DNA of 64,000 nucleotides from Candidatus Parcubacteria bacterium (lineage in GTDB: Bacteria > Patescibacteriota > Patescibacteriia > CAIXNZ01), in the NCBI GenBank assembly GCA_026395685.1, contig JAPLYG010000013.1, positions 387 through 64,386 on the forward strand, given 5' to 3'. Below, one piece after another: positions 4,890 to 60,435 of this stretch. Position 1 is the stretch's first letter. Every line of letters starts with the position of its first letter. The position numbers and the translations under genes were made by a program. Under the pieces are notes generated by a model, which saw only the letters and a list, made by a program, of their open reading frames with translations, searched no databases and was not told where the DNA came from.

Positions 4890-4999
4890 ATTACAACAAA
4901 TAAAATAGCAAATTTAAAAAAATGCCTCGAGTTTTGCTTTTATCTCCTGATTTAATTATATCAAATTTTATCTTACTTTAGCAGTCAAACTGGGGATAA

Positions 5000-5317
5000 C
5001 TAATAGCGGAAATTGCCCCTCATTTTTTCCTTATATTTTTTGATTTGGCGTTCCAGTTCCTCCCTGGCCTCATTTATAGCCACATACAAATCATCTCTGG
5101 TGGCTTCAGCCCGTAAAAGATGTTTCTGCGGCACTTCCAGATTTATTTCCGCCCGAAAAACATTGCCTTTTTGATGATGTTTAGTGGTTAAGCCGACGTC
5201 GACTCTGGCGATTAACGCCTGTTCAAAAAATTTTTCCAGACTGCCGACTTTTTCATTGACATAGTCTTTGAGAGCGTCGGTAAGCTCCAAATTTGTTCCT
5301 TTGATCTCGATTTGCAT
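5000..5317 (-). CDS. hpf: Ribosome hibernation promoting factor / RaiA family (short form)
   Basis: N-terminus MQIEIKGTNLELTDALKDYVNEKV is typical of HPF/YfiA. About 105 aa. Confidence 0.75.
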   Translation of the reverse strand: MQIEIKGTNLELTDALKDYVNEKVGSLEKFFEQALIARVDVGLTTKHHQKGNVFRAEINLEVPQKHLLRAEATRDDLYVAINEAREELERQIKKYKEKMRGNFRY

Positions 5318-5360
5318 AGTATAAGTAAATTAGTTATTAGCTTATTAGTAATCAGATGGT

Positions 5361-7433
<2,073 letters not shown>

Positions 7434-7523
7434 TTAAAAATTCAAAATGCAAAAATCAAAATTACAAAGCAAAAATCAAAATTTAGGTATTTTTAAAATA
7501 AACTTTCCAAAATTTAAAATTAT

Positions 7524-7560
7524 AAACTGTAACTTTAAACTTTGCACTTTAAACTTTAAG
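7524..7560 (+). repeat. Intergenic repeat family Y, copy 1 (AACTGTAACTTTAAACTTTGCACTTTAAACTTTAA)
   Basis: Near-identical 33-38 bp sequence recurs at 19028-19067 and, inverted, at 60566-60598. Confidence 0.6.
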
Positions 7561-7565
7561 CTTTC

Positions 7566-8312
7566 TTAAACGCCCAGCAGCCACTTCAGCAGCAAATTCC
7601 CGTATAGCAAAACAGCAATCCCCGCGCCAGCCAGAAAACTTCCCATAGGCAATAAATCGCCGAATTTTTTCTTTTTCGTTATTATTAATCCCAAAGCAAA
7701 TAATCCGCCCAGGATATAAGCCATTAAAAGCGTTATAATCAGATATTCCAAGCCCAGCATAATACCCAAAACAAAACCTAACTTCACGTCACCAAACCCG
7801 ATCCATTTGCCCCTTGACGCCAGATGCTGGATATAAAAAAATCCGCCGCCGACCAAAGAAGCAAAAACTAAGCCCTGCCACTGATAACCCAAATAAATAT
7901 TGACAATAAAACTGATAATCAAAGCCGGCCAGAGTATCGCATCTAAAATCGTTAAATATTTCAAATCAAAAATTAAAATAAATAAGAGCACAAAAACATA
8001 CAATAAATCGCTGAGCATCATTAAATTAATTGCATGATAATTTAAATAAATTAAGGCAAACAGCAAACCAGTCGCAATTTCAACAGCAAAATATTCCCAG
8101 CCGATAAATTTTTTACAGAATCTGCATTTACCGCGCAAGAAAATAAAGCTGAATAAAGGGATTAAATCACGCTTTAAAAGCTGCTGCTGGCAATGAGGGC
8201 AAAGAGAGCGCTTCCAGAGAGGCATTTTCTTTGACAAGCGATAAACCAATGAATTCATAAAACTGCCCATAACCAAGCCGATTATGAAGATAAAAATCAA
8301 TTCAATTAACAT
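7566..8312 (-). CDS. pilD: Prepilin peptidase (A24 family)
   Basis: N-terminal CPHC...CRFC zinc-binding pairs, multi-TM, GFGDVKL motif. Confidence 0.8.
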   Translation of the reverse strand: MLIELIFIFIIGLVMGSFMNSLVYRLSKKMPLWKRSLCPHCQQQLLKRDLIPLFSFIFLRGKCRFCKKFIGWEYFAVEIATGLLFALIYLNYHAINLMMLSDLLYVFVLLFILIFDLKYLTILDAILWPALIISFIVNIYLGYQWQGLVFASLVGGGFFYIQHLASRGKWIGFGDVKLGFVLGIMLGLEYLIITLLMAYILGGLFALGLIITKKKKFGDLLPMGSFLAGAGIAVLLYGNLLLKWLLGV

Positions 8313-8410
8313 AAGTTTTTATTAAATTATTATATGGTTAATTATACCAATTATTCAGCCAAAACAAAACAGCGCCTGAATTAAGACGCTGCCTATGATT
8401 TAAATTCCTT

Positions 8411-8890
8411 TTATTTATTACCTGCCTGTCGGTCAATCGCTTGCGAATGGGCGTGATAAGTCCCGGCTTCACCCAAACTGCTGGGCTTTTCAGTAGTAAA
8501 AACTATATCATAGCCTTCCGCAATCCCGGTATAGCTGTATTTTCCCGACGCCAAGGGATCTTTAGGGACAAGCGGCATATACGGATTAGCCTGATCACAG
8601 GGAGTTTCTGCTGGTAAAAAAGCTCCTGCTTTTTTAGAACAAAGTTTTTGAGCGCTAATATCGCCTAAAATAATCGGCGTAATGGTAACGGGATATTCAT
8701 TTTCATCGCTGTAATAAAATTCCAAAGCAGTGCGAACCTGACGGATATCGCTGATGCGCTTGGCATCTCTGGCTTTGCCGCGCTGATCATTAAGCGCTAC
8801 CACGGAAATTATACCCAACAAAATAATGATCGCAATAACAATTAAAAGCTCAATTAGAGAAAATCCCCTTTGACTTTTATTTTTTGTCAT
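8411..8890 (-). CDS. Type IV pilin-like protein with prepilin N-terminal methylation domain
   Basis: QRGFSLIELLIVIAIIILLGII N-terminus (G/F cleavage site followed by a hydrophobic helix). Confidence 0.75.
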   Translation of the reverse strand: MTKNKSQRGFSLIELLIVIAIIILLGIISVVALNDQRGKARDAKRISDIRQVRTALEFYYSDENEYPVTITPIILGDISAQKLCSKKAGAFLPAETPCDQANPYMPLVPKDPLASGKYSYTGIAEGYDIVFTTEKPSSLGEAGTYHAHSQAIDRQAGNK

Positions 8891-8905
8891 AAATTTATTT
8901 TTAAG

Positions 8906-9388
8906 TTATTGAAAAGCGCAAGGCTGACTTAATATTTGGATGCTGCTTGCGCAATTAATTCCTTTCTTTAGACCCAAATCTTTAAAATTTGTTTTTAATT
9001 CAAATTCTAACTGATAATCAAGGCCAATACTAATCGTCTGAAAATAATAAGGCTTTTCGTTTGCGTTCTGATACTGGCTAAAAGGCATATAATTAAATAT
9101 TATTTTGCTGCATTTATCATCATAACGTTTAAATCCGTCAGTGCATAATTTTTCCGTACCGAGATAATTATCATTAAGAGGCACCTTGCCGTTTGTTTCC
9201 GGATAGGTTGTATTATTTGCCAGATATAAATCCAAGCCGTTTTGAATTTGTTTAATGTCGCTTAAAACCTGGATATCCCTGCTTTTTTGATTTAAATACA
9301 AAACAAAAACAATGTCAAGGACAATCATAAAAAGAATCAGTATGATTACAACCAATAATTCAATTTTTGTGAATCCGTTTTGCTTCAT
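8906..9388 (-). CDS. Type IV pilin-like protein
   Basis: NGFTKIELLVVIILILFMIV N-terminus. Confidence 0.7.
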   Translation of the reverse strand: MKQNGFTKIELLVVIILILFMIVLDIVFVLYLNQKSRDIQVLSDIKQIQNGLDLYLANNTTYPETNGKVPLNDNYLGTEKLCTDGFKRYDDKCSKIIFNYMPFSQYQNANEKPYYFQTISIGLDYQLEFELKTNFKDLGLKKGINCASSIQILSQPCAFQ

Positions 9389-9423
9389 TGGCCTAAAAGC
9401 TAAATTCTTAAATGGAGAGTGAT

Positions 9424-9810
9424 TTATTTATGCTCTTTGAGAATCTTTTTTATTTTATCAACAACTTCGGACGGCATAAAATGAGCCTTGATCAGATAAC
9501 CGACTGCTCCTTTTTCAAAACCCTTTTTCACATCGTCTTTCTGGCCCAAATTGGTAAGTAAAACAACAGGAATGTTAGCCAGTTCCTTATCCTTTTTCAA
9601 AGCATCCAAGACTGCAAAACCATCCATTTTCGGCATTAAAATATCAAGCAATATGATATCCGGTTTCTCTTTTTTTGCCATGTCCAAACCTTTAAGCCCG
9701 TCTTCAGCCGCAACCACGCCAAAACCTTCCAGTTCAAATTTAGTGGTGTACATTTCCACTAGGAATGTATCGTCTTCGACTAATAGAATTTTTATTTTTT
9801 GATCTGCCAT
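9424..9810 (-). CDS. Stand-alone response regulator receiver (CheY-like) protein
   Basis: KILLVEDD ... DIILLDILMPKMDGF ... K layout of REC domains. 128 aa. Confidence 0.8.
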   Translation of the reverse strand: MADQKIKILLVEDDTFLVEMYTTKFELEGFGVVAAEDGLKGLDMAKKEKPDIILLDILMPKMDGFAVLDALKKDKELANIPVVLLTNLGQKDDVKKGFEKGAVGYLIKAHFMPSEVVDKIKKILKEHK

Positions 9811-9891
9811 AAAATAAAATTAAATGTTAAATCTCAGCCCAAGGCTGTCCCGTCTCTGGCGGGAAAAATTAAAAAATTAAATATATTTGAT

Positions 9892-10923
9892 TTATTTATA
9901 TGTTAAATATTCAGCTTCACTCAGGACTCTGGGATCCCAATCTACATAACCGCTGACTTCCTTTGCCTGCCGTATACTGCGGAAACGGTCATTTATTGTA
10001 TAAATTGAACCGGGATCAATTTTTGATATTGCCAAACCATTGCTGAAAACAACTGAATTTACGTCTATTTTTCTTAAAACTCCGCCCCAATCAATTAAGT
10101 ATAAAGTGGAATCAGCGGCAAATTTTACCACAGTGCCCCGCAATGGAGCTAAATCAGTATCCGGCAAAATAATATCTTCACAACGGCAATTTTCACAAGC
10201 TTGATTTTCCGAGCATCCCGCCAGATCACATTGTTCAGTTGCTTCAATTTTTCCATTGCCGCAAATTGGCGCAATAATTACCTGCCGGCATTGGCAATTA
10301 TTACAGACTTGATTTTCCGCACATCCCTGTAAATCGCACGCTTCGCCGGTTTCAATCACTCCATTACCGCAAATTGAAACTGCTTCAATTTGGCACAAGC
10401 CGGAACAGCCATCGCCATTTTCACGATTACCATCATCACAGCTTTCACTGCCCTCAATTTCTCCATTGCCGCAAATTGGCTCAATACTTACCTGCTGGCA
10501 TTGGCAATTATTACAGACCTGGTTTTCAGCACATCCTTGTACATCGCACTGTTCATTGAATTCAATCAAGCCATTGCCGCAAATCAACGCCTGTGGCGGC
10601 TTATTTTCGTTTATTACAATTTTTGGAGGACGAGTCAAAAGGTAATACGTTCCCAGAATTATCAGAGAAAAAACAAACAGTAAAATTATAATAATAACTA
10701 TTTTCTTTTTGAATAAATACGATTTTAATGAAGTAACCAGATTGACTTCGCCTAGCGGCTCCTCACTAAATTTCTCTGCCGGTTTTTGCGCTGGCTCAGG
10801 CTTTTTCTCACTGATTACTTTTTCAGAAGTAATATTTTCCAAAACCGGCTCATGCATTTGTACCGGCACTTTTGGGGGCGGCATTTTTTTATCCGGACCT
10901 TTGCCTAAAAAATCTATGGCCAT
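9892..10923 (-). CDS. Membrane-anchored protein with four tandem myxo-type Cys-rich repeats (ICGNGxIExxExCDxxGCxENQxCNNCQC)
   Basis: Four copies of the CGNG...CD...C..C.NC.C module. One copy reads CGNGEIEGSESCDDGNRENGDGCSGLC, matching the Myxococcus cysteine-rich repeat pattern. N-terminal TM helix. The DNA also shows about 120-bp tandem repeats across 10190-10570. Confidence 0.65.
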   Translation of the reverse strand: MAIDFLGKGPDKKMPPPKVPVQMHEPVLENITSEKVISEKKPEPAQKPAEKFSEEPLGEVNLVTSLKSYLFKKKIVIIIILLFVFSLIILGTYYLLTRPPKIVINENKPPQALICGNGLIEFNEQCDVQGCAENQVCNNCQCQQVSIEPICGNGEIEGSESCDDGNRENGDGCSGLCQIEAVSICGNGVIETGEACDLQGCAENQVCNNCQCRQVIIAPICGNGKIEATEQCDLAGCSENQACENCRCEDIILPDTDLAPLRGTVVKFAADSTLYLIDWGGVLRKIDVNSVVFSNGLAISKIDPGSIYTINDRFRSIRQAKEVSGYVDWDPRVLSEAEYLTYK

Positions 10924-13750: not shown

Positions 13751-13841
13751 GTAATTTGTTAACTGGTTTTGATATGCGCATATTTATTTGTTTAAAATTA
13801 GCCAAAAAATTATATATATTCGCTTAAATTAATCCAAGATA

Positions 13842-13870
13842 TTGACAAAAATGACGCAATATGCTATAAT
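13842..13870 (+). promoter_or_regulatory. Sigma70 consensus promoter TTGACA-N17-TATAAT
   Basis: Exact consensus hexamers with a 17-nt spacer. About 90 nt upstream of the 13963 ORF. Confidence 0.65.
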
Positions 13871-13962
13871 AATATATTGAAATTGATTATATTAGGAATT
13901 CAATCTTGTAGTTTGTCAACACAAAACAACCTGATTGATTACAGGAAAAAAGGAGATAAGCC

Positions 13963-14292
13963 ATGTGTTTCAACGATTGCTGGGTGGTTGTTTCCGTCCG
14001 CGACGAAGGCGACTACTATGCCTTCGAGTTCATGGGACGGCCGGGTCTGTCAGTCAGAAAAGAAGACTGTCAGATCGTGATCAACACCGAGCTCGGGGAC
14101 AAGATCCTGTTCTATCCCGAGCGCATCCCGGAGATCTGGGCCAACGACATCTGGGCGCTGATGGATGTGTTTGACGGGATCAAAATCCCGGACAAGACCC
14201 ATCCCTGCACCGGCTGCCACGGCACCAAGTGTTCCGTGGTCTGCCGTAACGACCAGCCCCCTCCCTCAGCCGCGGCCGCGTTCGCGTGCTGA
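13963..14292 (+). CDS. Hypothetical Cys-rich protein, GC-rich cassette gene
   Basis: AAAGGAGA Shine-Dalgarno. C-terminal PCTGCHGTKCSVVC cluster. Overlapping ORFs in other frames are likely artefacts of GC-rich DNA. Confidence 0.5.
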   Translation: MCFNDCWVVVSVRDEGDYYAFEFMGRPGLSVRKEDCQIVINTELGDKILFYPERIPEIWANDIWALMDVFDGIKIPDKTHPCTGCHGTKCSVVCRNDQPPPSAAAAFAC

Positions 14293-14302
14293 AAAAAAGA
14301 CC

Positions 14303-14335
14303 CCGCCAAAGGACATTGATCCGGCGGGGCTTTTT
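14303..14335 (+). terminator. Intrinsic terminator CCCCGCC-loop-GGCGGGG followed by CTTTTT
   Basis: gaccccgccaaaggacattgatccggcggggcttttt. Confidence 0.55.
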
Positions 14336-14385
14336 AAAACCACGGATTTTGCTCACTGATAACACTGATGTTTGGCGTCATCGGG

Positions 14386-14419
14386 ATATCAGTGTAATCT
14401 GTGAATAAAATCAGTGGTT
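14386..14419 (+). repeat. Repeat family X, copy A (ATATCAGTGTAATCTGTGAATAAAATCAGTGGTT), built from ATCWGTG heptamers
   Basis: Matches the reverse complement of 16415-16449 and 16868-16889. Preceded by two CACTGAT heptamers at 14355-14368. Confidence 0.6.
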
Positions 14420-14430
14420 CTGTTCTTCCT

Positions 14431-16197
14431 TTATAGAATCTTCTTAGCCAAATCAGACTTCAATTCCACATCCTCAACTTTAACCTTCCTCAAATCAACC
14501 AGCCTCAATTCAAGCTTTCTTGTCCCATTAAATTCATTCAAATTAATTTCGCAGACAATATCAACCAAATCCTCATACCTTATTTCACTGATCAAATTCC
14601 CCATACCAAAACCGATTGCTTCAAAACTTTTGACCATATTGTCATGCTTTAAAAATAATTTCAGATGCTTATTATCGCCGCCGACGGTACGAACATTTTC
14701 CACCCTTAAATTTTTGACTAAAAATAAAGGCTTGGGATTTGACGCGCCAAAAGGTTCAAATTTTTCCAGCTGTTCAAATAAGTCCCAATTCAAATCTTGC
14801 AAATTTAATTCCGCCTCAATCTCCATTCTTTCTGACAAATCTTTGCCCTGCAGCTCCTGAAGGGCAATTTCAGTTATACGTTTTTTAAAATCAGCCAGAT
14901 ACTTTCGGCTCTTTAAGGTAAAGCCGGCTGCTTGAGCATGACCGCCATAAATTTTAAAACAATCAGCCACCTTATCAAGAGCTTTAATCATATTAAATTC
15001 CGGAATCGAGCGCCCTGACCCGGCAACTTTGGCAAGTGACTTGGTTATTATTAAAATCGGTCGATTGAATTTATCTTTAATCTTGCCGGCAGCTAAGCCG
15101 ATAATTCCCAAAGGCCAATTACTTCCTTCGGCGATAATCAGTAGCTGTTTATCTATATCCGCAACTTCCTTTTTGACTTCTTCCATGATTTTATCAGTCA
15201 TGGTTTGTCTTTTGCGGTTGCTCTGCTCCAGATTATCAACTAAAGTTATTGCTTCCTGCTTATCTTCAGTCAATAAAAGCTCATATGCCGAATTAGCATG
15301 ATCCATGCGACCAGCCGCATTAATGCGCGGTCCCAGAACATAACCGATATTTTCCGAATTCATTAATTCTTTTTCCGTCACCGGCCAGACTCCGGCTTTT
15401 TCCGCCAGCAGTTTCAAGCCGATTCTTTTTGTTTTATTTAATACAACTAAGCCATATTTAACCAGGGCTCTATTTTCACCGAATAATGGCATAACGTCAG
15501 TAACTGTACCAATAGCCACCAGATCAAGCAGCCATTTTTCATAACCGGCCGAAAAAATACCCTTTTTATCCCTGGCAACAATCGCTTGCGCTAATTTATA
15601 GGCGACACCGACTCCGGCTAAATCATAAAAAGGATAATTGCAGACCTTAATTTTAGGATTAATTATGGCAAAAGCTTTAGGTAATTCTAAAGGCTCTGCG
15701 TGATGGTCAGTTATAATCACATCAATCCCCTTTTCATTGGCCAGGTCAATTTCCAAAACATTGCTGATACCGCAATCAACTGTAATAATCAGTTTTACTT
15801 TTTGTTTAGCTAAATATTTGATTGTTTTTTTATTAAGCCCATAGCCTTCCTTTTCCCGATGAGGAATATACACAATAAAATCAGCGCCCAATGTTTTTAA
15901 TACATTTGCTACCACCACGCTGCTAGTCACGCCGTCAGCATCATAATCGCCATGAATGGCGATTTTTTCTTTATCGGCAACGGCCTGATAAATTCTGACC
16001 ACGGCTTTTTCCATATCAGGAAACAAAAAAGGGTCAAGAACATCTTGGCCATAATCCGGGGTCAAAAACGCGTCAATTTGCTTTTGAGTTGTTAAACCGC
16101 GGTTAAAAAGTAACTGCAAAATCACACCCGCTATTTCCGGAAAACTCTTTTTTAATTCCAAACCTACCGGCTCTTTCAGAACCCACTTTTTTGACAT
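14431..16197 (-). CDS. recJ: Single-stranded-DNA-specific exonuclease RecJ
   Basis: DHH family motifs IAIHGDYDADGVTS and VIITDHH plus a DHHA1-like C-terminus. 588 aa. Confidence 0.85.
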   Translation of the reverse strand: MSKKWVLKEPVGLELKKSFPEIAGVILQLLFNRGLTTQKQIDAFLTPDYGQDVLDPFLFPDMEKAVVRIYQAVADKEKIAIHGDYDADGVTSSVVVANVLKTLGADFIVYIPHREKEGYGLNKKTIKYLAKQKVKLIITVDCGISNVLEIDLANEKGIDVIITDHHAEPLELPKAFAIINPKIKVCNYPFYDLAGVGVAYKLAQAIVARDKKGIFSAGYEKWLLDLVAIGTVTDVMPLFGENRALVKYGLVVLNKTKRIGLKLLAEKAGVWPVTEKELMNSENIGYVLGPRINAAGRMDHANSAYELLLTEDKQEAITLVDNLEQSNRKRQTMTDKIMEEVKKEVADIDKQLLIIAEGSNWPLGIIGLAAGKIKDKFNRPILIITKSLAKVAGSGRSIPEFNMIKALDKVADCFKIYGGHAQAAGFTLKSRKYLADFKKRITEIALQELQGKDLSERMEIEAELNLQDLNWDLFEQLEKFEPFGASNPKPLFLVKNLRVENVRTVGGDNKHLKLFLKHDNMVKSFEAIGFGMGNLISEIRYEDLVDIVCEINLNEFNGTRKLELRLVDLRKVKVEDVELKSDLAKKIL

Positions 16198-16414
16198 GAA
16201 ATATGTAAGTAAATAGTAAATAAGGCAGAGACAAAGGATGAAGTAGGAATAGTTCCTAGCTTCAGTCTTCAGACTTCATACTTCGGACTTCTAATAAAGA
16301 GCTGGACCGAGTGTCCAGATCAGCATTGATAAGACAACCATGGCGGAAAGCAGAATCCAGATTGTTCTGATGATATTTTGTTTCTTCATAGTATTATAAA
16401 ATTTGAACTATATT

Positions 16415-16449
16415 AACCACAGATTTAAACTCACAGATTACACTGATAT
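16415..16449 (-). repeat. Repeat family X, copy B (inverted)
   Basis: Reverse complement CATATCAGTGTAATCTGTGAGTTTAAATCTGTGGTT aligns almost base-for-base with copy A. Confidence 0.6.
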
Positions 16450-16455
16450 GCTGAA

Positions 16456-16827
16456 TTAATTTATAATTCTTTTAATTTTAACACCATCCTTATTAAATAT
16501 TATCAATAAACCCAGCCTATATTTATTTGCCTTCAGATAACTCAGCAGCTGCTTAATATCCTTTGTATAAAAATCATTGGCAATCTTTAATTCCACTACA
16601 ACCTTATCATCAATAATAAAATCCAAATAATACTTGCCTATTAATCTATCTTTATAATATATCCTTACAGGAAATTCCGCTATAAAGTTAATGCCCTGAT
16701 CATTAAATTCTTCGATATATCCTCTCTTATAAATAATCTCCCGATATCCAAAACCGATTTCATTATACACCTTATACGAAATTCCGATAATTTTCTCTGT
16801 TAAGTCCTCATATAAATATTCCCCCAT
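16456..16827 (-). CDS. GxxExxY family small protein (PD-(D/E)xK-like fold)
   Basis: 123-aa protein with GEYLYEDL ... YREIIYKRGY. Its length and G..E..Y motif match what I recall of the GxxExxY family. Bracketed by family X repeat copies B and C. Confidence 0.6.
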   Translation of the reverse strand: MGEYLYEDLTEKIIGISYKVYNEIGFGYREIIYKRGYIEEFNDQGINFIAEFPVRIYYKDRLIGKYYLDFIIDDKVVVELKIANDFYTKDIKQLLSYLKANKYRLGLLIIFNKDGVKIKRIIN

Positions 16828-28315: not shown

Positions 28316-29524
28316 CTAGACAATTATTAGTAATACCAACATTACGATCAGTCCCAAGGCGGAAAAAATAAGGTGAGGATGCTGCTTTTTGATTTCAATA
28401 AAGACATTCAGCGCTAAAGAAATTACGGCAATCAGCAATAATATCATAAAATATATCTTACTGGCGCCGACTAATGATTTTACCCCCTGGGCATTGCTTT
28501 GGCTGATATATAAATACTGGCGGATTAAAGAAGGCCTGATCTGCTCAATATTTTTCCAATTAATATCAGCTGTGGAAACATTGCCGGCCTGATCATAGGC
28601 GCTTAAACTGGCCAGGACCACCGGATTAAAAAGATTTTCCTTTTCCGCAGCAGGAATAATCAGGCTACCACTCCATTTATTAACATCATTTTCAACCGGA
28701 TATAATTCAATAATATTATTCTTGTAATAAACCTCGGCCTTAACAGTATCAGCGCTTAAAAAGGCCATTACTTCAAGCACTTTATCCTTGCTGGCCACAG
28801 GCTGATGCACAAAGATTTTGGTCATTTCCAAATCAATATGAGGAGGCACATTATCAGCTTCTGTTTCAATAAATTTTTCTCCCTGGACAAGCGCAATACT
28901 TACAGCAGACCTTGTTTTTTCCGTTTTGCTGTTATTTATAGAAATATTCTGAACCTCTATTATTTTAGGCGCAGCTAAATATTGAGTAACCATTGTGGTA
29001 TCATGTCCTTTAAAGACACCGCTGACCATTGAAACGCCGATTTCTTTAAAATCTGAGTCGATTAAATTGGCATTATGAGTTTTACTCAAAGTCCAGGCCG
29101 TAAAAACTTCCTTAGCGCCGGAAAAGCCCATAGCTAAATTTTCACCGACTGCCGCATAAGAATAACCAACACCCCTGATCCAATTCAGAGCGTTTTTATT
29201 TTCCGGGCTAAGATGGGCAAAATACTGGTTAACCATCATATCCTGTGCCTTGTTATAAGCAGCCTGATTCAGCAAAGCATTTTCCTGAAGCATCGGGAGA
29301 TTTAATTTTTGACGCAGTTCATTGGTTAAAGCAATTATTTCCTTGCTTTCTGCAGTCATAACATCAGGAGTCAGCCAGGCTCTGGACGGTAAAACCAAAA
29401 GAGCCATTAAGACAAAAATCTTAATTATAACAGCAGCCGCACCGTGAAAAAACAACCTTTTGGGATGCAGAATTTTCGGCTGATAATCATTAGCCTCGTG
29501 AGGAATAAATAAGTCTTTTAACAT
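28316..29524 (-). CDS. CAP (SCP/PR-1/YkwD-like) domain protein with a C-terminal TM anchor
   Basis: Central region ...QYFAHLSPEN ... GENLAMGF ... FTAWTLSKTHNANL is typical of CAP domains. Confidence 0.6.
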   Translation of the reverse strand: MLKDLFIPHEANDYQPKILHPKRLFFHGAAAVIIKIFVLMALLVLPSRAWLTPDVMTAESKEIIALTNELRQKLNLPMLQENALLNQAAYNKAQDMMVNQYFAHLSPENKNALNWIRGVGYSYAAVGENLAMGFSGAKEVFTAWTLSKTHNANLIDSDFKEIGVSMVSGVFKGHDTTMVTQYLAAPKIIEVQNISINNSKTEKTRSAVSIALVQGEKFIETEADNVPPHIDLEMTKIFVHQPVASKDKVLEVMAFLSADTVKAEVYYKNNIIELYPVENDVNKWSGSLIIPAAEKENLFNPVVLASLSAYDQAGNVSTADINWKNIEQIRPSLIRQYLYISQSNAQGVKSLVGASKIYFMILLLIAVISLALNVFIEIKKQHPHLIFSALGLIVMLVLLIIV

Positions 29525-29586
29525 ATCAAGAAATTATAACACCAATTGACGTAAATGTCAATCTTGAAATAAAATTATTAAATAAT

Positions 29587-41485: not shown

Positions 41486-41543
41486 AAATTTTGGGTTATT
41501 TTATTAATTTAAATTATTAGGACTATTTTACTAATGATGCCAG

Positions 41544-41587
41544 CCCAGCACTGTCATCCTGAGGCTCTCGAAGGATAAAGTGCTGGG
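41544..41587. repeat. Hairpin element family Z, copy 1. The stem CCCAGCACT/AGTGCTGGG displays the conserved core GTCATCCTGAGGCTCTCGAAGGA.
   Basis: The same 23-nt core recurs at 41940-41962 inside a different stem. Confidence 0.6.
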
Positions 41588-41609
41588 CAAGTCTATAATG
41601 TTTTTAAGA

Positions 41610-41909
41610 TTATCTATTCGGATGCTTACGCCTTGAATAAATTACTAATTTATCCACATTTTCTTCAATTAGAGCTTTCTTCTTGCGCCGCGACCAACCC
41701 TTAATCTGTTTTTCACGCTCAATGGTGGAATTTATATCAGTCGAATATTCGCAAAAAACCAATCTTACCGGGCGCCTTTTATAAGTATAACTTTTTTCAT
41801 TTACTTGATTATTATGTTCCCAAATCCGTCTTTCAAGATTATTTGTAACTCCCGTATAATAAGTTTTATCTTTACATTCAACAATATATACCCAATATGT
41901 TTTATACAT
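41610..41909 (-). CDS. GIY-YIG nuclease domain small protein
   Basis: YWVYIVECKDKTYYTGVTNNLERRIWEHN (GIY-YIG core with a conserved R and E). 99 aa. Confidence 0.8.
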   Translation of the reverse strand: MYKTYWVYIVECKDKTYYTGVTNNLERRIWEHNNQVNEKSYTYKRRPVRLVFCEYSTDINSTIEREKQIKGWSRRKKKALIEENVDKLVIYSRRKHPNR

Positions 41910-41924
41910 AAATAATAGTTAAGG

Positions 41925-41981
41925 ATTAAAATCCTAATGTCATCCTGAGGCTCTCGAAGGAGATCATTAGGATTTTAATCT
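41925..41981. repeat. Hairpin element family Z, copy 2. Stem GATTAAAATCCTAAT/ATTAGGATTTTAATC around the same core.
   Basis: Conserved loop with a compensatory, different stem. Confidence 0.6.
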
Positions 41982-42031
41982 CATCGTAATCAACAAAGAC
42001 AATATTTTTTTATATAACATTCCTTTTATCA

Positions 42032-53311: not shown

Positions 53312-54640
53312 TCATTTTTTCTTCTCAATCTCCTCCTCCACCCTCTTTTTCGCCTCCTCCAATAATTCTTTAGCTTCTTTTCTTAATTTAAAAGATTCAT
53401 TGACCAAATCAGCGATTTTTTGCTGGGTTTTAAGGGGTAAAATTGGGATAATTGTATTTTCAACCTGATCAGGCCGCCAATGGATAATAATTGAACCGCC
53501 AGCGTCTCGTTCAATTTGCATTTGGCAAATCAAAGAATTTAATACTAACGATAAATATTGAGGGACTAAATTTTTATCCTTAATTTTGAGTCGTAAGATT
53601 CCACCCGAAATTATGCCTTCAACATCTCGCCCTAATAAAACCGTGATGCCCGGAGTCGCATCCTTGCTTAATAAAATCTCGCCTTTTTGCGGCTGATATT
53701 TATCTTTCAATTCATTATACAATTTTTCGCTCAAAAACTGCTGATTATTGTCATTCAAGCCGAATTTAGACATATTAGAAACGCGAATAAAGGGTTTCCC
53801 TTCCTCCACATATTCTTCACTACCAGGCTCAATCCCCTTTTGCCAGGAAACCAAATCGCTTAATTTTTCCTTCTTAACTTTTATTTTACTTAAAATATTT
53901 TCGTACTTCGGCTGAAAAAATTCCGCATCAATGCGCTCAGATCGCAAGCAATCCTTTAAAGTAGTTGTAAATGACAAATCTTCTTCCGATTTTAAATCCT
54001 TAATGCCTAATTCTTCAAGCAGCAAATCTTCGGCTTGAGCGTACTGTGAGTTTGACTTTTCAAATATTTTATCTGCTTTAACATATAATTTTTCAAAAAT
54101 ATCAAGATTTTTCAATAACGGCATTACAATATTTTCGACATTACCAGTGTTTAAATGTAATTGACCTGTCGCGCCGGTAATTTCACGATTAATTTGAAAT
54201 TGTCCATACTTACTCTTTAAAAAAGCCCAAATGTAAAAGGAATTAATTTTTGATTCTCTTATTACTGTAACTTCTGACACAGTGCCCTTTGAATCATTAG
54301 CACCTGTAAAAATATTAACCTTACCTATTGAACCAAAACCTATCGATGAAATTAAAATATCATTCTTCCTCAGGTAAAAAATATTATCGTCTTTTGCGTT
54401 CAACAAATCCCCACTAAGAAAGAAATTAGAGTCTAAATCCCCTGATCTGACAATTGGCACCTCAAAATCGCCGTATTCCTTAGGCGTATTTCCCCGCAAA
54501 ATAGAGGCGGCATCGCCTAGTGAAATAACTTTAAATTTTTTTATTTTATTTAGATATTCCAAATACTCCGGTTGATAGTATTCCGGGTCTAGGCGCAGGG
54601 CGCCTTCGAGGTGGGATTTGGGGATTATTGAGTAGGTCAT
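53312..54640 (-). CDS. Restriction-modification specificity subunit (HsdS-like, two target-recognition domains). Likely the S/B subunit of a BcgI-like Type IIB system.
   Basis: Internal duplication RLDPEYYQPEY / RIDAEFFQPKY at the TRD starts. Conserved ILPLKTQQKIADLV (PLxEQxxI) regions. Confidence 0.7.
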   Translation of the reverse strand: MTYSIIPKSHLEGALRLDPEYYQPEYLEYLNKIKKFKVISLGDAASILRGNTPKEYGDFEVPIVRSGDLDSNFFLSGDLLNAKDDNIFYLRKNDILISSIGFGSIGKVNIFTGANDSKGTVSEVTVIRESKINSFYIWAFLKSKYGQFQINREITGATGQLHLNTGNVENIVMPLLKNLDIFEKLYVKADKIFEKSNSQYAQAEDLLLEELGIKDLKSEEDLSFTTTLKDCLRSERIDAEFFQPKYENILSKIKVKKEKLSDLVSWQKGIEPGSEEYVEEGKPFIRVSNMSKFGLNDNNQQFLSEKLYNELKDKYQPQKGEILLSKDATPGITVLLGRDVEGIISGGILRLKIKDKNLVPQYLSLVLNSLICQMQIERDAGGSIIIHWRPDQVENTIIPILPLKTQQKIADLVNESFKLRKEAKELLEEAKKRVEEEIEKKK

Positions 54641-54649
54641 ATTACTATT

Positions 54650-55558
54650 TTATTTTATTACATCTTCTGATTCTAATTTAACGCCATTGGAGTATATCGT
54701 TCCAACATTCTTAAGAAATTCCACAAAAGACTTATCATTTACAATAAAAGTAGTTCTGTTTTCAGAAGATATTGTTATTGAATCTCTAATAACCCCATAA
54801 TTAATAAAATCTGGTAAGGGGAACTCATATGATAACCATTTCTTTTCTTCCATATCTATATCTTTAAAATTAACATCCCCATTTTGTATTTTCTTGTAAT
54901 CCAATTTTGTTAAATAGAGATTGGCGGTTGTTACCACTACTGGTAAATAAATAAAATGTTTAAACTGTAAAAAATTCACTTTATTACTAATTCCTTCAAT
55001 ATATTTTGGGATTTTATTTTCCAGCGCATATGAACCATGAGCTGCTTGTCTAATAGCTTTATAAATCTTATCGTCCTGATTTCTATTAATAGTAGTGAGC
55101 TTATCATTAGTTTCAATAGATTGATTGCAATAATTGAAATCACCAATCAAGCGATACCCTAAATCGGGAAACGTGAGTTGCCTCGTTAAATACTTCCTTT
55201 CATACATTAAATTATTATCGATTATATCTGAAAAAATAAAAAGCGGCTTTTTGTCTAAACTTTCGTTTAAAAATATCCAATTTTTGATATTACTATTTGC
55301 CTTTTTACATTCTATTATTAGAAATAATAAAGTTTTTTCTTCAATTCCTTTTACACCCCTGACGGCCACAATATCAATACTACCATGAGCGCCTAAAATG
55401 GGACCATTTGAACTCGGATGTGTATAGGGAAACTCGGATACTGCTTTAAATATCCATGATCCATGATCTTGATCACAATTTCTAATAGTATCTAGACACC
55501 ATTTTTGAAATGGATATCCCGTTTCATTTAATAATTTTACTGCTTTCTCTTTTTCCAT
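54650..55558 (-). CDS. PD-(D/E)xK nuclease-like hypothetical protein
   Basis: Start refined to MEKEKAVKLL, 1 nt after the upstream stop. GSIDIVAV ... LFLIIECKK matches the hD...ExK core. Confidence 0.45.
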   Translation of the reverse strand: MEKEKAVKLLNETGYPFQKWCLDTIRNCDQDHGSWIFKAVSEFPYTHPSSNGPILGAHGSIDIVAVRGVKGIEEKTLLFLIIECKKANSNIKNWIFLNESLDKKPLFIFSDIIDNNLMYERKYLTRQLTFPDLGYRLIGDFNYCNQSIETNDKLTTINRNQDDKIYKAIRQAAHGSYALENKIPKYIEGISNKVNFLQFKHFIYLPVVVTTANLYLTKLDYKKIQNGDVNFKDIDMEEKKWLSYEFPLPDFINYGVIRDSITISSENRTTFIVNDKSFVEFLKNVGTIYSNGVKLESEDVIK

Positions 55559-55559
55559 A

Positions 55560-56126
55560 TTATTTATTTTCTCTAATTTTCTTCCTTTCGTCTGCAATTG
55601 AGGGTGCCACATAAAGAACCTGACAAAATTGTTTAAGTAATTCTAATATATCCTCTGCATCAGATTTATTTATATCAGTATCCGTACCTGGTTTTCTAGG
55701 ATGCGCCGCATCATTCCCTACCAACCGCACTTCATGAGCCCAATCTTTTAAATCTTTAGTTATAATACCTTGAGAAAATAGCCATTCGATTTGTTTTTCC
55801 AGTTTATCCTTTTCATCTGCTCCTTTATCTAGACAAATATTCTGTATAGCTCTTCTTGCCATCACAGAGGCAGCCCTGAATGCACTAGCAGAAAAGCAAA
55901 TATTCGCCTCCTCAAAATCTTTTCTTATTGGTTCTAATATCCTAGAATCTATGGGCTCAGGTAATGGCATAGGATATTTTTCACTACTGTGATTATTTAC
56001 TAAAATTACTTTCTGACAAGAATTGCACTGCCCCATCCAATATTCACCGTGTATAGAATTAAAGCCGCCCCGATTTGATAGTTCTACATATTTATGACAA
56101 TAAGGACAATAAATGGATGTATTCAT
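55560..56126 (-). CDS. DUF4145-like protein with an N-terminal zinc ribbon
   Basis: CPYCHKYV...CNSCQ ribbon plus a C-terminal ...RLVGNDAAHP... helical domain, as seen in R-M/abortive-infection neighbourhoods. Confidence 0.55.
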   Translation of the reverse strand: MNTSIYCPYCHKYVELSNRGGFNSIHGEYWMGQCNSCQKVILVNNHSSEKYPMPLPEPIDSRILEPIRKDFEEANICFSASAFRAASVMARRAIQNICLDKGADEKDKLEKQIEWLFSQGIITKDLKDWAHEVRLVGNDAAHPRKPGTDTDINKSDAEDILELLKQFCQVLYVAPSIADERKKIRENK

Positions 56127-56139
56127 AATTTTAAATAAA

Positions 56140-58083
56140 TTAAAAATTTAAATTTTCCTTTTTCGCAAACTTCAAAAATTCTTCGGCAATTTCATCCAAA
56201 TCATGATCTAAAACCTTCTTGCCCTTCATATCAACCGCCAATTTTCCTTCGGCATCTTTTTTATAAACATAATCCCCTGAATTGTCTTTGCCTGACTTTT
56301 GAGATACGGCCATGAAAATATTATAATCCTTAGGCGCTTTTTCCTTCTCTTTGAATTTCTGCAAAAATAAAACCGAAGTTTTGGTGCCGGTATGCGGTTT
56401 AAAAGTGTTTACATTCAACCCGACTACGGCTAAAATTCTCGCCTTGTCCATTAAAAATTGCCGCACGTGTTGCATGTTAGTATTATTAAAAACGCCTTGG
56501 GGTAAAACAATAGCTAGTCTGCCACCCGGCTTAACCAATTGTACTGAACGCTCAATAAATAAAATATGGCGTTCCATTTTATTTTTTAATTTACCAGCTT
56601 CATTTTTTGACAATTCATACTGATTTAAAAGCGTCTTCTCGATTATTTCTCCCGCAAACGGAGGATTTGATAGCAATATATCATAATCAAAGAACCTGAA
56701 GTTCTCCTGATTATCTTTATTTTTATCATAGTCATCAAATTTATGCAGCAAATTTCTTAATTCGCCTCTGGCCCTTTCCTTTTCAGCCTCATTCCCCATC
56801 CAATCCCTAGGATTTAAAGAATTTAATTTAAAAATATGGGTTTTACCATCACCGGCAATCAGCATTAATGCTCGTGAAATTTTAACTGATTTATCGTCAA
56901 AATCAATGCCAAACAGATATTTTTTCGCATAATCGCTCATAGCCTCTCGATCCATATGCAAGTAATTATCATAAACATAACGCATGGCGTGGATTAAAAA
57001 TCCGCCGGAACCGCAGGCAGGGTCAATAACATATTCATTCGGCTGAGGGCTTAGCATTTTTACCGCCATATTAATTACATGGCGAGGCGTAAAATACTGC
57101 CCCTTTTTACCTTTAGCAACATCGGGCAATAAATACTCGAAAGCCGAATCAATGACTTCAAGATTAGCATCATATAATTTAATTTTTTCCAATTGCCCCA
57201 CGCAGACGTCCAGATGATTGGGTGACAGTTCTATTTTCTCATAATCATTAAAAATCCCCGGCCATTCTTTCCTGGCTGAATCAAATAATTTGCTGACTTG
57301 CGCCATGGTCAATTCAGGATCCTTATACTGTCTGAAATATAAAATCTTTTTTTCACGCTTTTTAGCTTCTTTTTCATCAAAAAGTTTGGCGTATATCAAT
57401 TTAAAAATTTCATTAAAACTATCCACGCCGGAATTTGCCAGAACTAATTCTTCTAAGATTTTAATAATATCCACCAAATCGAATTCGCTTTCAAGGTCGG
57501 ACAAAGTCACATCCTCAGTCAAAACATCCTCAATTGACTGATCGGCTCTGGGAATATCCCTTAAGGTATTTTCAAATTCATGCGGGTGAGATCGGTATAA
57601 AATGACTCTTTCATTGCCATTTGACCAGACTCCGATTGGCGCTCCCTCAGAATTTACATAGCTTTTTAATTGTTCCAAGCCTTTCTTCTCATCCGGGCTT
57701 TTTAACTCAATAATCACCCAAGGAGTCTCCTTATCTTTTTGATAAATTACAATATCAGCGGCTTTACCATGTATTTCTCGGCCAAAATGGATATCCTTTT
57801 CAATTCCAATGCGGTCTATCGGGTAACCATAATCCTTAATAATCTTATGAAGCCACAGCTGGCGGATAATTTCCTCCGGTTTACTTAAATTTTTTTCCTC
57901 ATTATAAACTAAAATATCCTTAGCGCGCACAGGATCCTTGATATAATACTTCCCCTCTTCAACTTCAAAAATATCCAAAACATCGCCAAGCTTAATGCCC
58001 TTAAATTCTTTTAACCCATACTGAACATCGGGATCTTTAAAAATTTTACTTATGATTTGATTGGATAACTCTTTCTTAAGCAT
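56140..58083 (-). CDS. Fused restriction endonuclease / N6-adenine DNA methyltransferase (BcgI A-subunit-like, Type IIB/IIG). N-terminal HsdR-N-like PD-(D/E)xK domain plus a gamma-class MTase.
   Basis: GKAADIVIYQKDKETPWVIIELKSP (D...ExK), motif I VIDPACGSGGFL, motif IV LLSNPPFAG. 647 aa. Confidence 0.75.
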   Translation of the reverse strand: MLKKELSNQIISKIFKDPDVQYGLKEFKGIKLGDVLDIFEVEEGKYYIKDPVRAKDILVYNEEKNLSKPEEIIRQLWLHKIIKDYGYPIDRIGIEKDIHFGREIHGKAADIVIYQKDKETPWVIIELKSPDEKKGLEQLKSYVNSEGAPIGVWSNGNERVILYRSHPHEFENTLRDIPRADQSIEDVLTEDVTLSDLESEFDLVDIIKILEELVLANSGVDSFNEIFKLIYAKLFDEKEAKKREKKILYFRQYKDPELTMAQVSKLFDSARKEWPGIFNDYEKIELSPNHLDVCVGQLEKIKLYDANLEVIDSAFEYLLPDVAKGKKGQYFTPRHVINMAVKMLSPQPNEYVIDPACGSGGFLIHAMRYVYDNYLHMDREAMSDYAKKYLFGIDFDDKSVKISRALMLIAGDGKTHIFKLNSLNPRDWMGNEAEKERARGELRNLLHKFDDYDKNKDNQENFRFFDYDILLSNPPFAGEIIEKTLLNQYELSKNEAGKLKNKMERHILFIERSVQLVKPGGRLAIVLPQGVFNNTNMQHVRQFLMDKARILAVVGLNVNTFKPHTGTKTSVLFLQKFKEKEKAPKDYNIFMAVSQKSGKDNSGDYVYKKDAEGKLAVDMKGKKVLDHDLDEIAEEFLKFAKKENLNF

Positions 58084-58699
58084 AATTTCTTGATAAATTT
58101 TTAATTAATTTACCTAAAATATAAGTTTCCTCAGTCACCGGTATTCTTTCATATTTAGGATTTTCAGGCTGAAAATATGTTTTTTTATCACGATTTATTA
58201 ATCTTTTAACGGTGGTTCCATCCATGGTTCTGGCAAGAACGATTTCATTATCTTTAAATTCCTTGGCTTTAGTAAAAAGCAGCAAATCGCCGTCCAAAAT
58301 ATTGGCGCCTATCATGGAATCCCCATAAGCCTTTATAATTATTAAGTCACAAGAAAACTGATGAACTTCCGGTGATAGTTCCATCCAAACATCTCTTTGC
58401 TCAAATAATTCTACCAAAGGCCCGCACGAGCCCAGACCAGCCACATTAACTAAGGGCATAACATCTAGTGATTCAAACCCCCGTTGTAAAATATTAATAG
58501 ATCTGGCCAGGCCTTCATTGCGCTTAATCATTTTTTTGTCTTCTAATTTCTCCAACAAATCCAAAACCGCCTGGTTTGAGCTGACACCAAGTTCTTTTTT
58601 CATTTCTTCAAATGACGGGATATTGCCTTCAGCTTTAAGCCAATCGTAGATAATTTGAAGTAATTGCTTTTGTCTGTGGGAGATAATTGAGGTTTTCAT
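58076..58699 (-). CDS. lexA: LexA repressor (winged-helix N-terminus plus S24 autopeptidase)
   Basis: N-terminal RQKQLLQIIYDWLKAEGNIPSFEEMKKELGVSSNQAVLDLLEKLEDKKMIKR. C-terminal VAGLGSCGP cleavage region, GDSM Ser motif and TVKRL Lys. Confidence 0.8.
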   Translation of the reverse strand: MKTSIISHRQKQLLQIIYDWLKAEGNIPSFEEMKKELGVSSNQAVLDLLEKLEDKKMIKRNEGLARSINILQRGFESLDVMPLVNVAGLGSCGPLVELFEQRDVWMELSPEVHQFSCDLIIIKAYGDSMIGANILDGDLLLFTKAKEFKDNEIVLARTMDGTTVKRLINRDKKTYFQPENPKYERIPVTEETYILGKLIKNLSRNYA

Positions 58700-58707
58700 A
58701 TACTTAT

Positions 58708-58736
58708 ATTCTACTGACCATTTAGTCAGCCGTCAA
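58708..58736 (-). promoter_or_regulatory. lexA promoter TTGACG-N17-TAGAAT (minus strand)
   Basis: -35 at 58736-58731, -10 at 58713-58708. ATG at 58699. Confidence 0.55.
58714..58729. promoter_or_regulatory. Candidate LexA operator CTGAC-N6-GTCAG occupying the promoter spacer
   Basis: Perfect 5-bp inverted arms, located exactly between -35 and -10. Confidence 0.45.
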
Positions 58737-58791
58737 CTAATGTTATCCACAAAAAAATACCGGCTAACCAGTATTTAATTATAATCTCAAA

Positions 58792-59010
58792 TTATTTGAT
58801 TTTCGCCTTAACTTTCGCCTCCACCTTAGCCTTTTTCACTTTCTCCGCATGACAGTGATACTTCCCATTTTTTAGTCCCCAACTTTTACAATTCGTCTTA
58901 CAAACATGACAACCTGAAGCATTGGTCCTGCCCGGATGCGCGTAGGCGCCGAAAGGCAGAATCAAAGCCAATACTAATATTATTAATAAAAATTGTATTT
59001 TTCTGGTCAT
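58792..59010 (-). CDS. Small secreted YHYH-motif protein
   Basis: Start refined to MTRKIQFLLIILV (signal peptide). HPGRTNASGCHVC ... GKYHCH. Confidence 0.45.
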   Translation of the reverse strand: MTRKIQFLLIILVLALILPFGAYAHPGRTNASGCHVCKTNCKSWGLKNGKYHCHAEKVKKAKVEAKVKAKIK

Positions 59011-59014
59011 ATTT

Positions 59015-59287
59015 TTAATAATTTTCTTCAACATATGCCTGGCATCCTTCAATAAAAGACTGAGACTTTCCGCTACAATCATCAACGTCATCAATCCCCT
59101 TTTCTTCAGCCCAATCATAACCAGCTTCATGTCCGCTACAGTCGTCTGTACATTCATAACCGTAAAAAGTATTTTCATCTGAAGAATAATCCACTGAATC
59201 GTAACTATCACCAGTAGAAGAACAGCCACTTAAAATCAAAAGTAAAGATACTACAAATAGCAAATTTTGGATGCTGGATTTATACAT
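59015..59287 (-). CDS. Small acidic lipoprotein
   Basis: LLLILSGCSS lipobox. Four Cys residues. Confidence 0.45.
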   Translation of the reverse strand: MYKSSIQNLLFVVSLLLILSGCSSTGDSYDSVDYSSDENTFYGYECTDDCSGHEAGYDWAEEKGIDDVDDCSGKSQSFIEGCQAYVEENY

Positions 59288-59550: not shown

Positions 59551-59620
59551 ATATTGAGGTTTTATGAGGTTCTATGAGGTTATATTAAGTTGGATGAGGT
59601 TGCTGGAGAAGGATGAAGGG
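59551..59620. repeat. Seven 10-bp phased repeats wwwTGAGGTTn (helical periodicity)
   Basis: TGAGGT at 59555, 59565, 59575, 59595, with degenerate units at 59585, 59604 and 59613. Confidence 0.6.
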
Positions 59621-59728
59621 TGGAGTTGAAAGTTCAAAATTAAAAATTTCCGCTATGGTCTTTAGTTTAAACTTAATAATTTTATTTTACGCTATATTTA
59701 CACTAAATTCAATATCTTGAAAATGGGC

Positions 59729-59817
59729 GAAAATGGCTGTGTAATTAGGGATCCAATTCCCTCGGGGATTGGATTCCGTTGCTCGCGGTCCCTGACATCA
59801 TCAATACAGCCATTTTC
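59729..59817 (-). other. Long hairpin (12-bp perfect outer stem GAAAATGGCTGT/ACAGCCATTTTC enclosing an imperfect 14-bp inner inverted repeat). Possible leader RNA structure.
   Basis: Seen directly in sequence. Lies between a terminator and the upstream region of the small membrane gene. Confidence 0.35.
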
Positions 59818-59825
59818 TCTCAAAA

Positions 59826-59866
59826 AAAAAGCGCCCCGAGTCCCGCAATGCGGGACGAGGGGCGCA
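59826..59866 (-). terminator. Intrinsic terminator GCGCCCC-g-AGTCCCGC-aat-GCGGGAC-g-AGGGGCGC followed by T9 on the minus strand
   Basis: Strong GC stem followed by the A9/T9 run at 59818-59826. Confidence 0.75.
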
Positions 59867-59884
59867 GGAATGGTGCGCTGGATT

Positions 59885-60292
59885 TCAGCACTTAACTTGT
59901 AAGTCAGCTGGCTGGCGACGATTGCCCATCCAAAAGCCGATGGCCATGAAAAAGACCTGGGGCGCAGCCATGACGATCATCAGATCATACCATTGGTACG
60001 GCATCTGCTGGCAGAACCTGGCCGTCAATACTGCTGTCGACGCGGCGATGATAACCATCACACACCCGAATCCCAAATCCCAAGCCGCGGGCAGGCTAAG
60101 GCCGAGCAGGAAAGCGGCGACCGTGAACATGCCCAAAGCCGTTCCCACATCCAGCCAGGGATGCTGAGCCAATAGTCCTCCTTTGGTGAAGGCAATGACC
60201 TGAAACGAAAAGAGCCACAAACAAATACCAAGTAACCGCGAATTTTTCAACATTCTCCCTCCTCCTTGCCCAGAACCTATGCGCAAACGCAT
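59885..60292 (-). CDS. GC-rich small membrane protein
   Basis: Four predicted TM helices. About 55% GC. Confidence 0.5.
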   Translation of the reverse strand: MRLRIGSGQGGGRMLKNSRLLGICLWLFSFQVIAFTKGGLLAQHPWLDVGTALGMFTVAAFLLGLSLPAAWDLGFGCVMVIIAASTAVLTARFCQQMPYQWYDLMIVMAAPQVFFMAIGFWMGNRRQPADLQVKC

Positions 60293-60435
60293 GGCTCTGG
60301 ACTGGTTAAGTTGTTGTTTCCTGGTCTGTGTAGCCCAGACAATTTAAAACCGCGCTTGCAATACGATGCATATTAAACACATTGCCACTGAGACTCTTTA
60401 CATCTCATTCTAGACTTTTGGCAAGAAAAAATCAA

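Follow-up and report, generated by a model that had tools for sequence, protein, structure and literature searches.

The lexA locus and its promoter

The window, by which we mean the whole 64-kb stretch of DNA that was analysed, carries on its minus strand a lexA gene that is preceded by a compact promoter region. Its features are listed below in the order in which the minus strand is read, each with its basis in brackets.

58755–58776, minus strand: terminator-like hairpin with a T-run at the end of the upstream small gene (sequence read)
58743–58751, plus strand: consensus DnaA box TTATCCACA, an exact 9-mer, 6 nt upstream of the −35 hexamer (sequence)
58731–58736, minus strand: −35 hexamer TTGACG (promoter match; TTGAC is kept in related loci)
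58714–58729, minus strand: proposed LexA operator, the 16-bp palindrome CTGAC-TAAATG-GTCAG (sequence and conservation in 16 distinct lexA promoters)
58708–58713, minus strand: −10 hexamer TAGAAT (promoter match; 8 nt between the end of the hexamer and the ATG)
58076–58699, minus strand: lexA, 207 aa, a winged-HTH domain followed by an S24 autopeptidase (Pfam, TIGR00498, alignment and PDB matches)

Read on the minus strand from 58760 to 58690, the region runs TGTGGATAA-cattag-TTGACG-g-CTGAC-TAAATG-GTCAG-TAGAAT-ataagtat-ATG, with the lexA start codon at 58699–58697. The two hexamers form the top sigma-70-type match in positions 57900–59100 (10 of 12 positions), and the palindrome occupies 16 of the 17 nt of their spacer, ending 14 nt before the ATG. 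The preliminary description had placed a palindrome inside the spacer of a minus-strand TTGACG-17-TAGAAT promoter, and its coordinates, arms and spacer length all agree with our re-reading. The hairpin isolates this promoter from the small gene upstream. An in-frame TGA within the −35 hexamer excludes any lexA start codon further upstream. Between the −10 hexamer and the ATG lie 8 nt that contain no Shine-Dalgarno sequence, and with this TGA upstream the lexA mRNA is probably leaderless. The distance between the −10 hexamer and the ATG is 6–9 nt in every related locus that was read.

Only one operator is found at the lexA promoter of the window, and the exact motif CTGAC-N6-GTCAG has a single occurrence in the 64 kb. 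When up to one mismatch was allowed, three matches were obtained versus 0.40 expected, a number that no shuffled sequence reached; the other two are intra-coding and lie in a giant open reading frame (4832) and in an M23 peptidase gene (61550).

The predicted LexA protein

The domain architecture of the 207-aa product is that of a LexA repressor, with matches to the Pfam families LexA_DNA_bind (PF01726; residues 6–66, E = 5.8e-10) and Peptidase_S24 (PF00717; E = 4.5e-18). The score against TIGR00498 was 110.8 bits, which is 0.15 bit short of the curated equivalog cut-off of 110.95. Matches among solved structures in the PDB were to LexA and UmuD only, the best ones all being LexA; with E. coli LexA the alignment starts at residue 4, and residues 6–188 are aligned. 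In an alignment of 19 sequences, Ser128 of the GDSM motif, Lys165 and the cleavage-site residue Gly93 are invariant, and the catalytic residues of the window protein are intact. The residue preceding Gly93 is a cysteine (Cys92) in the clade of the window and an alanine in most other sequences of this alignment; UmuD is cleaved at a Cys-Gly bond. The named homologues belong to Parcubacteria, Nomura-, Kuenen- and Moranbacteria and the 'Patescibacteria group', which assigns the window to a Patescibacteria (CPR) bacterium. The protein is not an Xre-type HTH protein of about 80–100 aa, and no PADLOC model matched it.

Conservation of the palindrome and co-variation with the recognition helix

Sixteen distinct Patescibacteria lexA promoters carry the site at this position, and the consensus aCTGACYAWWTRGTCAGt was derived from them. 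GAC and GTC are present in 16/16 sites, as is R12, while Y7 and A8 are each found in 15/16 and T11 in 13/16. The six central positions, written as N6 in the preliminary description, are not arbitrary: they are both constrained and symmetric (Y7/R12, A8/T11 and W9/W10), so that the element comprises the full 16-bp palindrome; the arms stand as described, and the homologous promoters read Y-A-W-W-T-R between them.

Four close relatives (L081, L082, L083 and L085) show the arrangement TGTGGATAA...TTGAC-nn-CTGAC-N6-GTCAG, followed by the −10 hexamer and the ATG, and in three of them (L081, L082 and L083) LexA is 67–87% identical to that of the window. Their central letters vary (CAAACA, CAAATA, TAAATA and TAAACA), as do the flanks and the upstream genes. 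The same design recurs in distant loci (L001, L002, L003, L006, L007, L009, L086, L088 and L092–L096), whose LexA proteins share 42–51% identity with that of the window and whose sources are labelled as Staskawicz-, Beckwith-, Nomura-, Kuenen- and Moranbacteria and Paceibacterota. In these lineages (C)YGAC-YAWWTR-GTCR(G) lies between TTGAC and the −10 hexamer.

The type of operator co-varies with the predicted recognition helix of the adjacent LexA. Loci with the aCTGACYAWWTRGTCAGt operator encode the helix SNQ(A/S/T)(V/I/L)(L/I)(D/N), and Saccharibacteria-like loci with a Gram-positive-type box (GTGAACG...) encode SKNAVAK; the latter box was found upstream of lexA in L008, L010, L013 and L014. 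Two loci (L005 and L090) carry a variant site, GTsTAC-N4-GkTCA, and in L004 the helix is similar to that of the TGAC-type loci, yet no recognisable operator was found there. Taken together, the position of the site, its conservation and this co-variation make LexA autoregulation the best reading, and the palindrome is most likely, as judged in silico, a LexA autoregulatory operator. The earlier suggestion that it serves as the repressor operator of the lexA promoter is thereby strengthened, and we regard it as likely that the repressor concerned is the LexA-family protein encoded immediately downstream.

Restriction-modification genes follow lexA

The lexA gene of the window is the first gene of a low-GC cluster that continues on the minus strand as follows.

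56140–58083, minus strand: DNA methyltransferase of 647 aa with HSDR_N_2 and N6_Mtase domains, type I-like (Pfam; PADLOC MTase_I, E = 6e-188)
55560–56126, minus strand: DUF4145 protein, PD-T7-4-like (family match)
54650–55612, minus strand: 320-aa protein with no family match (in the cluster)
53312–54640, minus strand: type I specificity (S) subunit, which closes the cluster (family match)

The first 8 nt of the methyltransferase gene are shared with the end of lexA. The region 53312–58760 has a GC content of 0.346, compared with a window mean of 0.390, and no other 5.4-kb stretch of the window is as low. A search of the cluster did not reveal a restriction (R) subunit.

The linkage was followed through the window and L001–L009, L083 and L086–L096. 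Restriction-modification (R-M) genes are located directly 3' of lexA in all 16 lineages sampled (14 with the operator, and L005 and L090 with the variant), lexA and the R-M gene either overlapping or standing no more than 55 nt apart. A lexA-methyltransferase pairing like that of the window is present in L001, L002, L006, L081–L085, L090 and L093. The types of R-M system differ and include type II (HinfI, Tsp45I, MvaI/BcnI, EcoRII with Dcm and Vsr, and HNH) as well as type I-like systems (N6_Mtase with an S subunit). The following gene contents were recorded 3' of lexA in the individual loci.

L086: N6_N4 methyltransferase and HinfI nuclease
L007: Eco57I-type methyltransferase and Tsp45I
L096: N6_N4 methyltransferase and MvaI/BcnI
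L095: EcoRII, Dcm and Vsr
L088: N6_Mtase, S subunit and a UvrD/PDDEXK protein
L003, L005, L092 and L094: methyltransferase with or without an unknown gene
L009, 2989–4425: LexA and N6_N4 DNA methyltransferase domains in one 478-aa open reading frame, followed by an HNH nuclease gene

The long reading frame of L009 is either a true fusion or the product of a sequencing frameshift. Further genes are found on the same strand behind the R-M genes in two loci: a Y-family polymerase gene (IMS/dinB) follows lexA-MTase-S after a 64-nt gap in L093 (9012–10268), and the UvrD/PDDEXK gene of L088 lies at 13823–16726. Neither has an operator of its own, and both are possible extensions of the lexA operon.

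Detectable homologues of these methyltransferases were present within 3 kb of 0/71 other lexA loci, a control set (L010–L080) drawn, among the matches listed, from a genome scan by LexA alignment and consisting mostly of non-Patescibacteria. None of the six loci with a Gram-positive-type box directly abuts R-M genes, and only L008 has a methyltransferase nearby, about 550 nt downstream. In L095 the lexA-EcoRII-Dcm-Vsr module (4673–9986) lies between rpoC and ftsK, an interval that is short and devoid of the module in L177 and L178; its absence from two relatives suggests that it is mobile. From this gene order, the operator appears to control lexA together with an R-M unit that behaves as a module. 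As R-M genes come directly after every lexA of this type, the operator would resemble the site of an R-M controller placed under a damage-cleavable repressor.

A DnaA box accompanies the lexA promoter

The preliminary description had also mentioned a lone DnaA-box-like sequence 14 bp further upstream. Its place (58743–58751) is correct, the distance to the palindrome being 14 nt in the window. It is by no means incidental, being among the most conserved features of the promoter. In 18 of 25 loci an exact TTATCCACA lies no more than 160 nt ahead of the lexA start, compared with 0.11 expected from the eight other exact copies counted in 285 kb (Poisson P about 1e-33, a value that ignores the kinship of the loci). 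The boxes are found in both orientations, with starts at −43 to −159 relative to the lexA start codon and 11/19 of them at −52 to −62. The consensus upstream of lexA in the window and 17 other loci reads (a)GTTATCCACA.

The box accompanies TGAC-type and GAAC-type lexA promoters alike, including those of Saccharibacteria-like loci. Its presence at both promoter types implies that it predates the split between the two operators and is independent of the linkage with R-M genes. The adjacent box probably adds an input of replication status to the lexA promoter. A literature search returned no paper connecting DnaA boxes with Patescibacteria.

Search for operators outside lexA promoters

According to the preliminary description, the motif might define the SOS box of the lineage and so allow the regulon to be predicted. 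A matrix was built from the 16 lexA-promoter sites and scanned over 245.7 kb, comprising the window and 17 related loci. Scores were 17.6–26.5 at 15 of the 16 lexA promoters used to build the matrix and 12.7 at that of L001. Outside lexA promoters no site in the 245.7 kb scored 19 or higher, and a score of 17.6 was reached once, within the M23 peptidase gene of the window (61549). Regulon prediction has thus found no support so far, in that no other strong site is present in about 246 kb.

Neither recA nor further SOS genes occur in the window, and its ligA and recJ have no operator site in the matrix scan. recA is present in related Patescibacteria, and three recA loci (L095, L177 and L178) were used, all of them Moranbacteria-like and not of the window's own lineage; L095 carries lexA and recA 4 kb apart on one locus, and L177 and L090 probably stem from one organism. 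In the sequences that precede recA, rodZ and ftsK there, the matrix scored −1 to −4 at best, equal to the background median, so in this small sample the search in front of repair genes that the preliminary description had proposed was negative at recA of these three genomes, none from the lineage of the window. Short direct repeats were observed upstream of recA, namely TTCGGAATTTATTCGG in L095 (about 1225–1260) and ATTCGTAT...ATTCGTAT in L177 (about 5930–5990), which are possibly sites of another regulator.

Weaker matches were rejected as regulon members. Those at 4832, 14631 and 61550 of the window are all intra-coding, and that at 29547 overlaps the −35 hexamer of the promoter of a CAP-domain gene, whose TTGAC supplies one of the arms. 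The sequence in question, TTGAC-ATTTAC-GTCAA (29545–29560), resembles the operator and overlaps the −35 hexamer of a good TTGACA-17-TATAAT promoter, and the gene (28316–29524) encodes a CAP-domain secreted protein. A scan of viral contigs with TTGACNNCTGACNNNNNNGTCAG was likewise discarded: its 79 matches are close to chance by a rough estimate, most are intra-coding in unrelated phages that are frequently of high GC, and none of them adjoins a LexA homologue. As a separate observation, several high-GC phage contigs (L112, L117, L118, L149/L150, L152 and L158) have promoters that read TTGAC-nn-CTGAC-N6-GTCAG-TAnnnT, with two of them on one contig. These operator-in-spacer promoters have GC-rich spacers and no nearby LexA gene.

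The most serious alternative to an operator confined to the lexA-R-M unit is a genome-wide SOS box. In that case recA, uvr, dinB/imu and further repair genes would each have the motif in front of them, LexA would be a global SOS regulator, and the R-M genes would be one member of its regulon. LexA proteins normally control several operons (PMC8565304). The presence of dinB in L093 and of the UvrD/PDDEXK gene in L088 behind lexA and its R-M genes agrees with such a role, and small regulons located elsewhere in the genomes would escape a scan of about 250 kb. However, the scan of 245.7 kb gave no site scoring 19 or more away from lexA promoters, the sequences upstream of recA, rodZ and ftsK in L095, L177 and L178 are at background, ligA and recJ of the window lack a site, and dinB and uvrD, having no operators of their own, look like extensions of the lexA operon. 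We therefore consider a genome-wide SOS box unlikely.

Much less probable is a different binding protein for the palindrome, such as the methyltransferase or an unrecognised controller, or a role for it as recognition sequence of the linked R-M system. Bipartite recognition sites of R-M systems do resemble GAC-N6-GTC, some methyltransferases regulate their own genes through N-terminal HTH domains, and in L009 LexA and the methyltransferase form one 478-aa reading frame. Nevertheless, the type of operator stays constant while the linked R-M type changes (HinfI, Tsp45I, MvaI/BcnI, EcoRII and type I-like), so the site is neither an R-M recognition sequence nor the binding site of a single methyltransferase family, and the palindrome was rejected as an R-M recognition or methyltransferase site on this ground. 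Moreover, LexA is the sole protein that is constant across the loci, and it is the LexA helix that co-varies with the operator class. A chance palindrome, or a hairpin without a protein partner, is highly improbable: five-bp arms alone are weak evidence and TTGAC-N6-GTCAA is found at another promoter of the window (29545–29560), but its place in the promoter is shared by 16 lineages, GAC and GTC are invariant among them, its exact form is unique in the window, and, lying upstream of the probable transcription start, it would not be part of the RNA.

A model for a putative LexA-controlled unit

Under LexA autoregulation, a LexA dimer would occupy the 16-bp palindrome in the promoter spacer, obstruct RNA polymerase and thereby repress its own leaderless transcript. 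This transcript would run through the 8-nt overlap into the type I-like methyltransferase gene and, beyond that first overlap, probably also span the rest of the methyltransferase/specificity-subunit cluster. Upon DNA damage, RecA filaments would trigger self-cleavage of LexA, with Ser128 and Lys165 as the predicted catalytic pair and Cys92-Gly93 as the predicted cleavage site. The operator would be vacated, lexA and the modification genes would be induced jointly, and newly made LexA would close the promoter again. The site would thus function more like the operator of an R-M controller, acting through a damage-sensitive repressor, than like a genome-wide SOS box, and the DnaA box next to the promoter probably contributes a signal of replication status.

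What we find most interesting is the apparently steady wiring of a DnaA box, a LexA operator, a leaderless lexA and R-M genes across Patescibacteria. A broader proposal, which we put forward tentatively and which may well not hold, is that LexA in Patescibacteria is not mainly a regulator of repair and instead serves as a conserved, damage-cleavable controller of R-M operons, with lexA, its DnaA box, its TGAC-type operator and its leaderless start heading interchangeable R-M cassettes. If this is true, the levels of modification and restriction would follow both DNA damage (through RecA and LexA) and replication status (through DnaA). R-M is considered a main defence of these reduced-genome bacteria, and the wiring, if functional, would couple genome defence and self-protection to signals of DNA damage and of replication. 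The unit is also a simple system for testing, consisting of one promoter, two sites and one repressor.

Comparison with known LexA boxes and R-M controllers

That a lexA promoter should hold a LexA box is commonplace in itself, and the site described here adds a lineage-specific motif with which Patescibacteria genomes can be scanned. The LexA box of E. coli and Gammaproteobacteria is CTGT-N8-ACAG (PMC8565304). The window site resembles it in its length of 16 bp, its palindromic form, its terminal CTG...CAG and its AT-rich centre, as well as in lying within the lexA promoter and being targeted, putatively in the window, by a winged-HTH repressor with an S24 domain. The two differ at positions ±5 and ±4, which are T-A in the E. 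coli box and A-C in the window site, and in the recognition helix, in which S39, N41 and E45 of E. coli LexA correspond to S41, Q43 and D47 of the window protein. The E. coli lexA promoter contains two LexA boxes, whereas that of the window contains one. Unlike in E. coli, no matching site was found at recA in the three Patescibacteria loci.

The Gram-positive (Cheo) box, CGAAC-N4-GTTCG, shares with the window site a G-A at −6/−5 from the centre and a location between or over the hexamers of the lexA promoter. It is 14 bp long with GAAC, compared with 16 bp and GACY in the window type, and it is accompanied by the helix SKNAVAK, compared with SNQAVLD. The window motif is therefore intermediate between the E. 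coli and Gram-positive forms. Its earlier labelling as non-canonical is overstated given the length, ends and AT-rich centre of the E. coli box and the G-A of the Gram-positive one.

The SOS network of Patescibacteria was the subject of a study (Sanchez-Osuna, Barbe, Erill, Environ Microbiol 2017;19:3465) that is cited in PMC8565304 and PMC7739468, the latter listing it among cases of direct-repeat LexA motifs. That study very probably covered lexA promoters of this sort, and the GTsTAC-N4-GkTCA variant of L005 and L090 may be its direct-repeat motif. The novelty of the aCTGACYAWWTRGTCAGt motif itself is accordingly uncertain.

The arrangement shares several features with the controller (C) proteins of R-M systems, such as C.PvuII, C.AhdI and C.Esp1396I (PMC2632904, PMC2175313, PMC2275141). 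In both cases a small regulator gene comes first in an R-M operon and overlaps the next gene, a palindromic operator lies in the regulator's own promoter, and the mRNA is leaderless (PMC2632904), probably so in the window. The distance from the site to the ATG is 17–18 nt for C proteins (PMC2632904) and 12–15 nt in the lexA loci. In contrast, C proteins belong to the Xre-type HTH proteins and lack a protease domain, while the regulator of the window is homologous to LexA and carries an S24 domain. C proteins act at paired sites through activation followed by repression, while the window has a single site in a good sigma-70 promoter. Furthermore, C protein genes usually precede the nuclease gene, and lexA here usually precedes the methyltransferase gene.

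HdiR and UmuDAb are LexA-like repressors whose regulons are minimal (PMC8565304). As is predicted for the window protein, they are self-cleaving repressors of the S24 family that control only their own operon and one or few others; their targets are error-prone polymerase or recA operons, not R-M genes. A precedent for joint control by DnaA and LexA is E. coli uvrB (PMC6015884), in which a DnaA box and a LexA box are likewise present in one promoter region. However, uvrB is a repair gene of a large regulon with several promoters, whereas here a lone consensus box stands beside the −35 hexamer of lexA across the superphylum.

Other features of the window

Scans of the window for Rfam families and tRNAs gave no matches. 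Just upstream of the lexA region, positions 59600–60300 have a higher G+C content, and an open reading frame at 59885–60292 has no family match and a composition that is odd for this genome. At the left end, an open reading frame of at least 1637 aa (3–4913, minus strand) with a signal-peptide-like start runs off the window. Between a HAD hydrolase gene and mscL (41540–41990), a small open reading frame, whose translation is apparently of the GIY-YIG nuclease type, has a copy of CCTTCGAGAGCCTCAGGATGACA on either side, and both copies are situated within hairpin-like inverted repeats.
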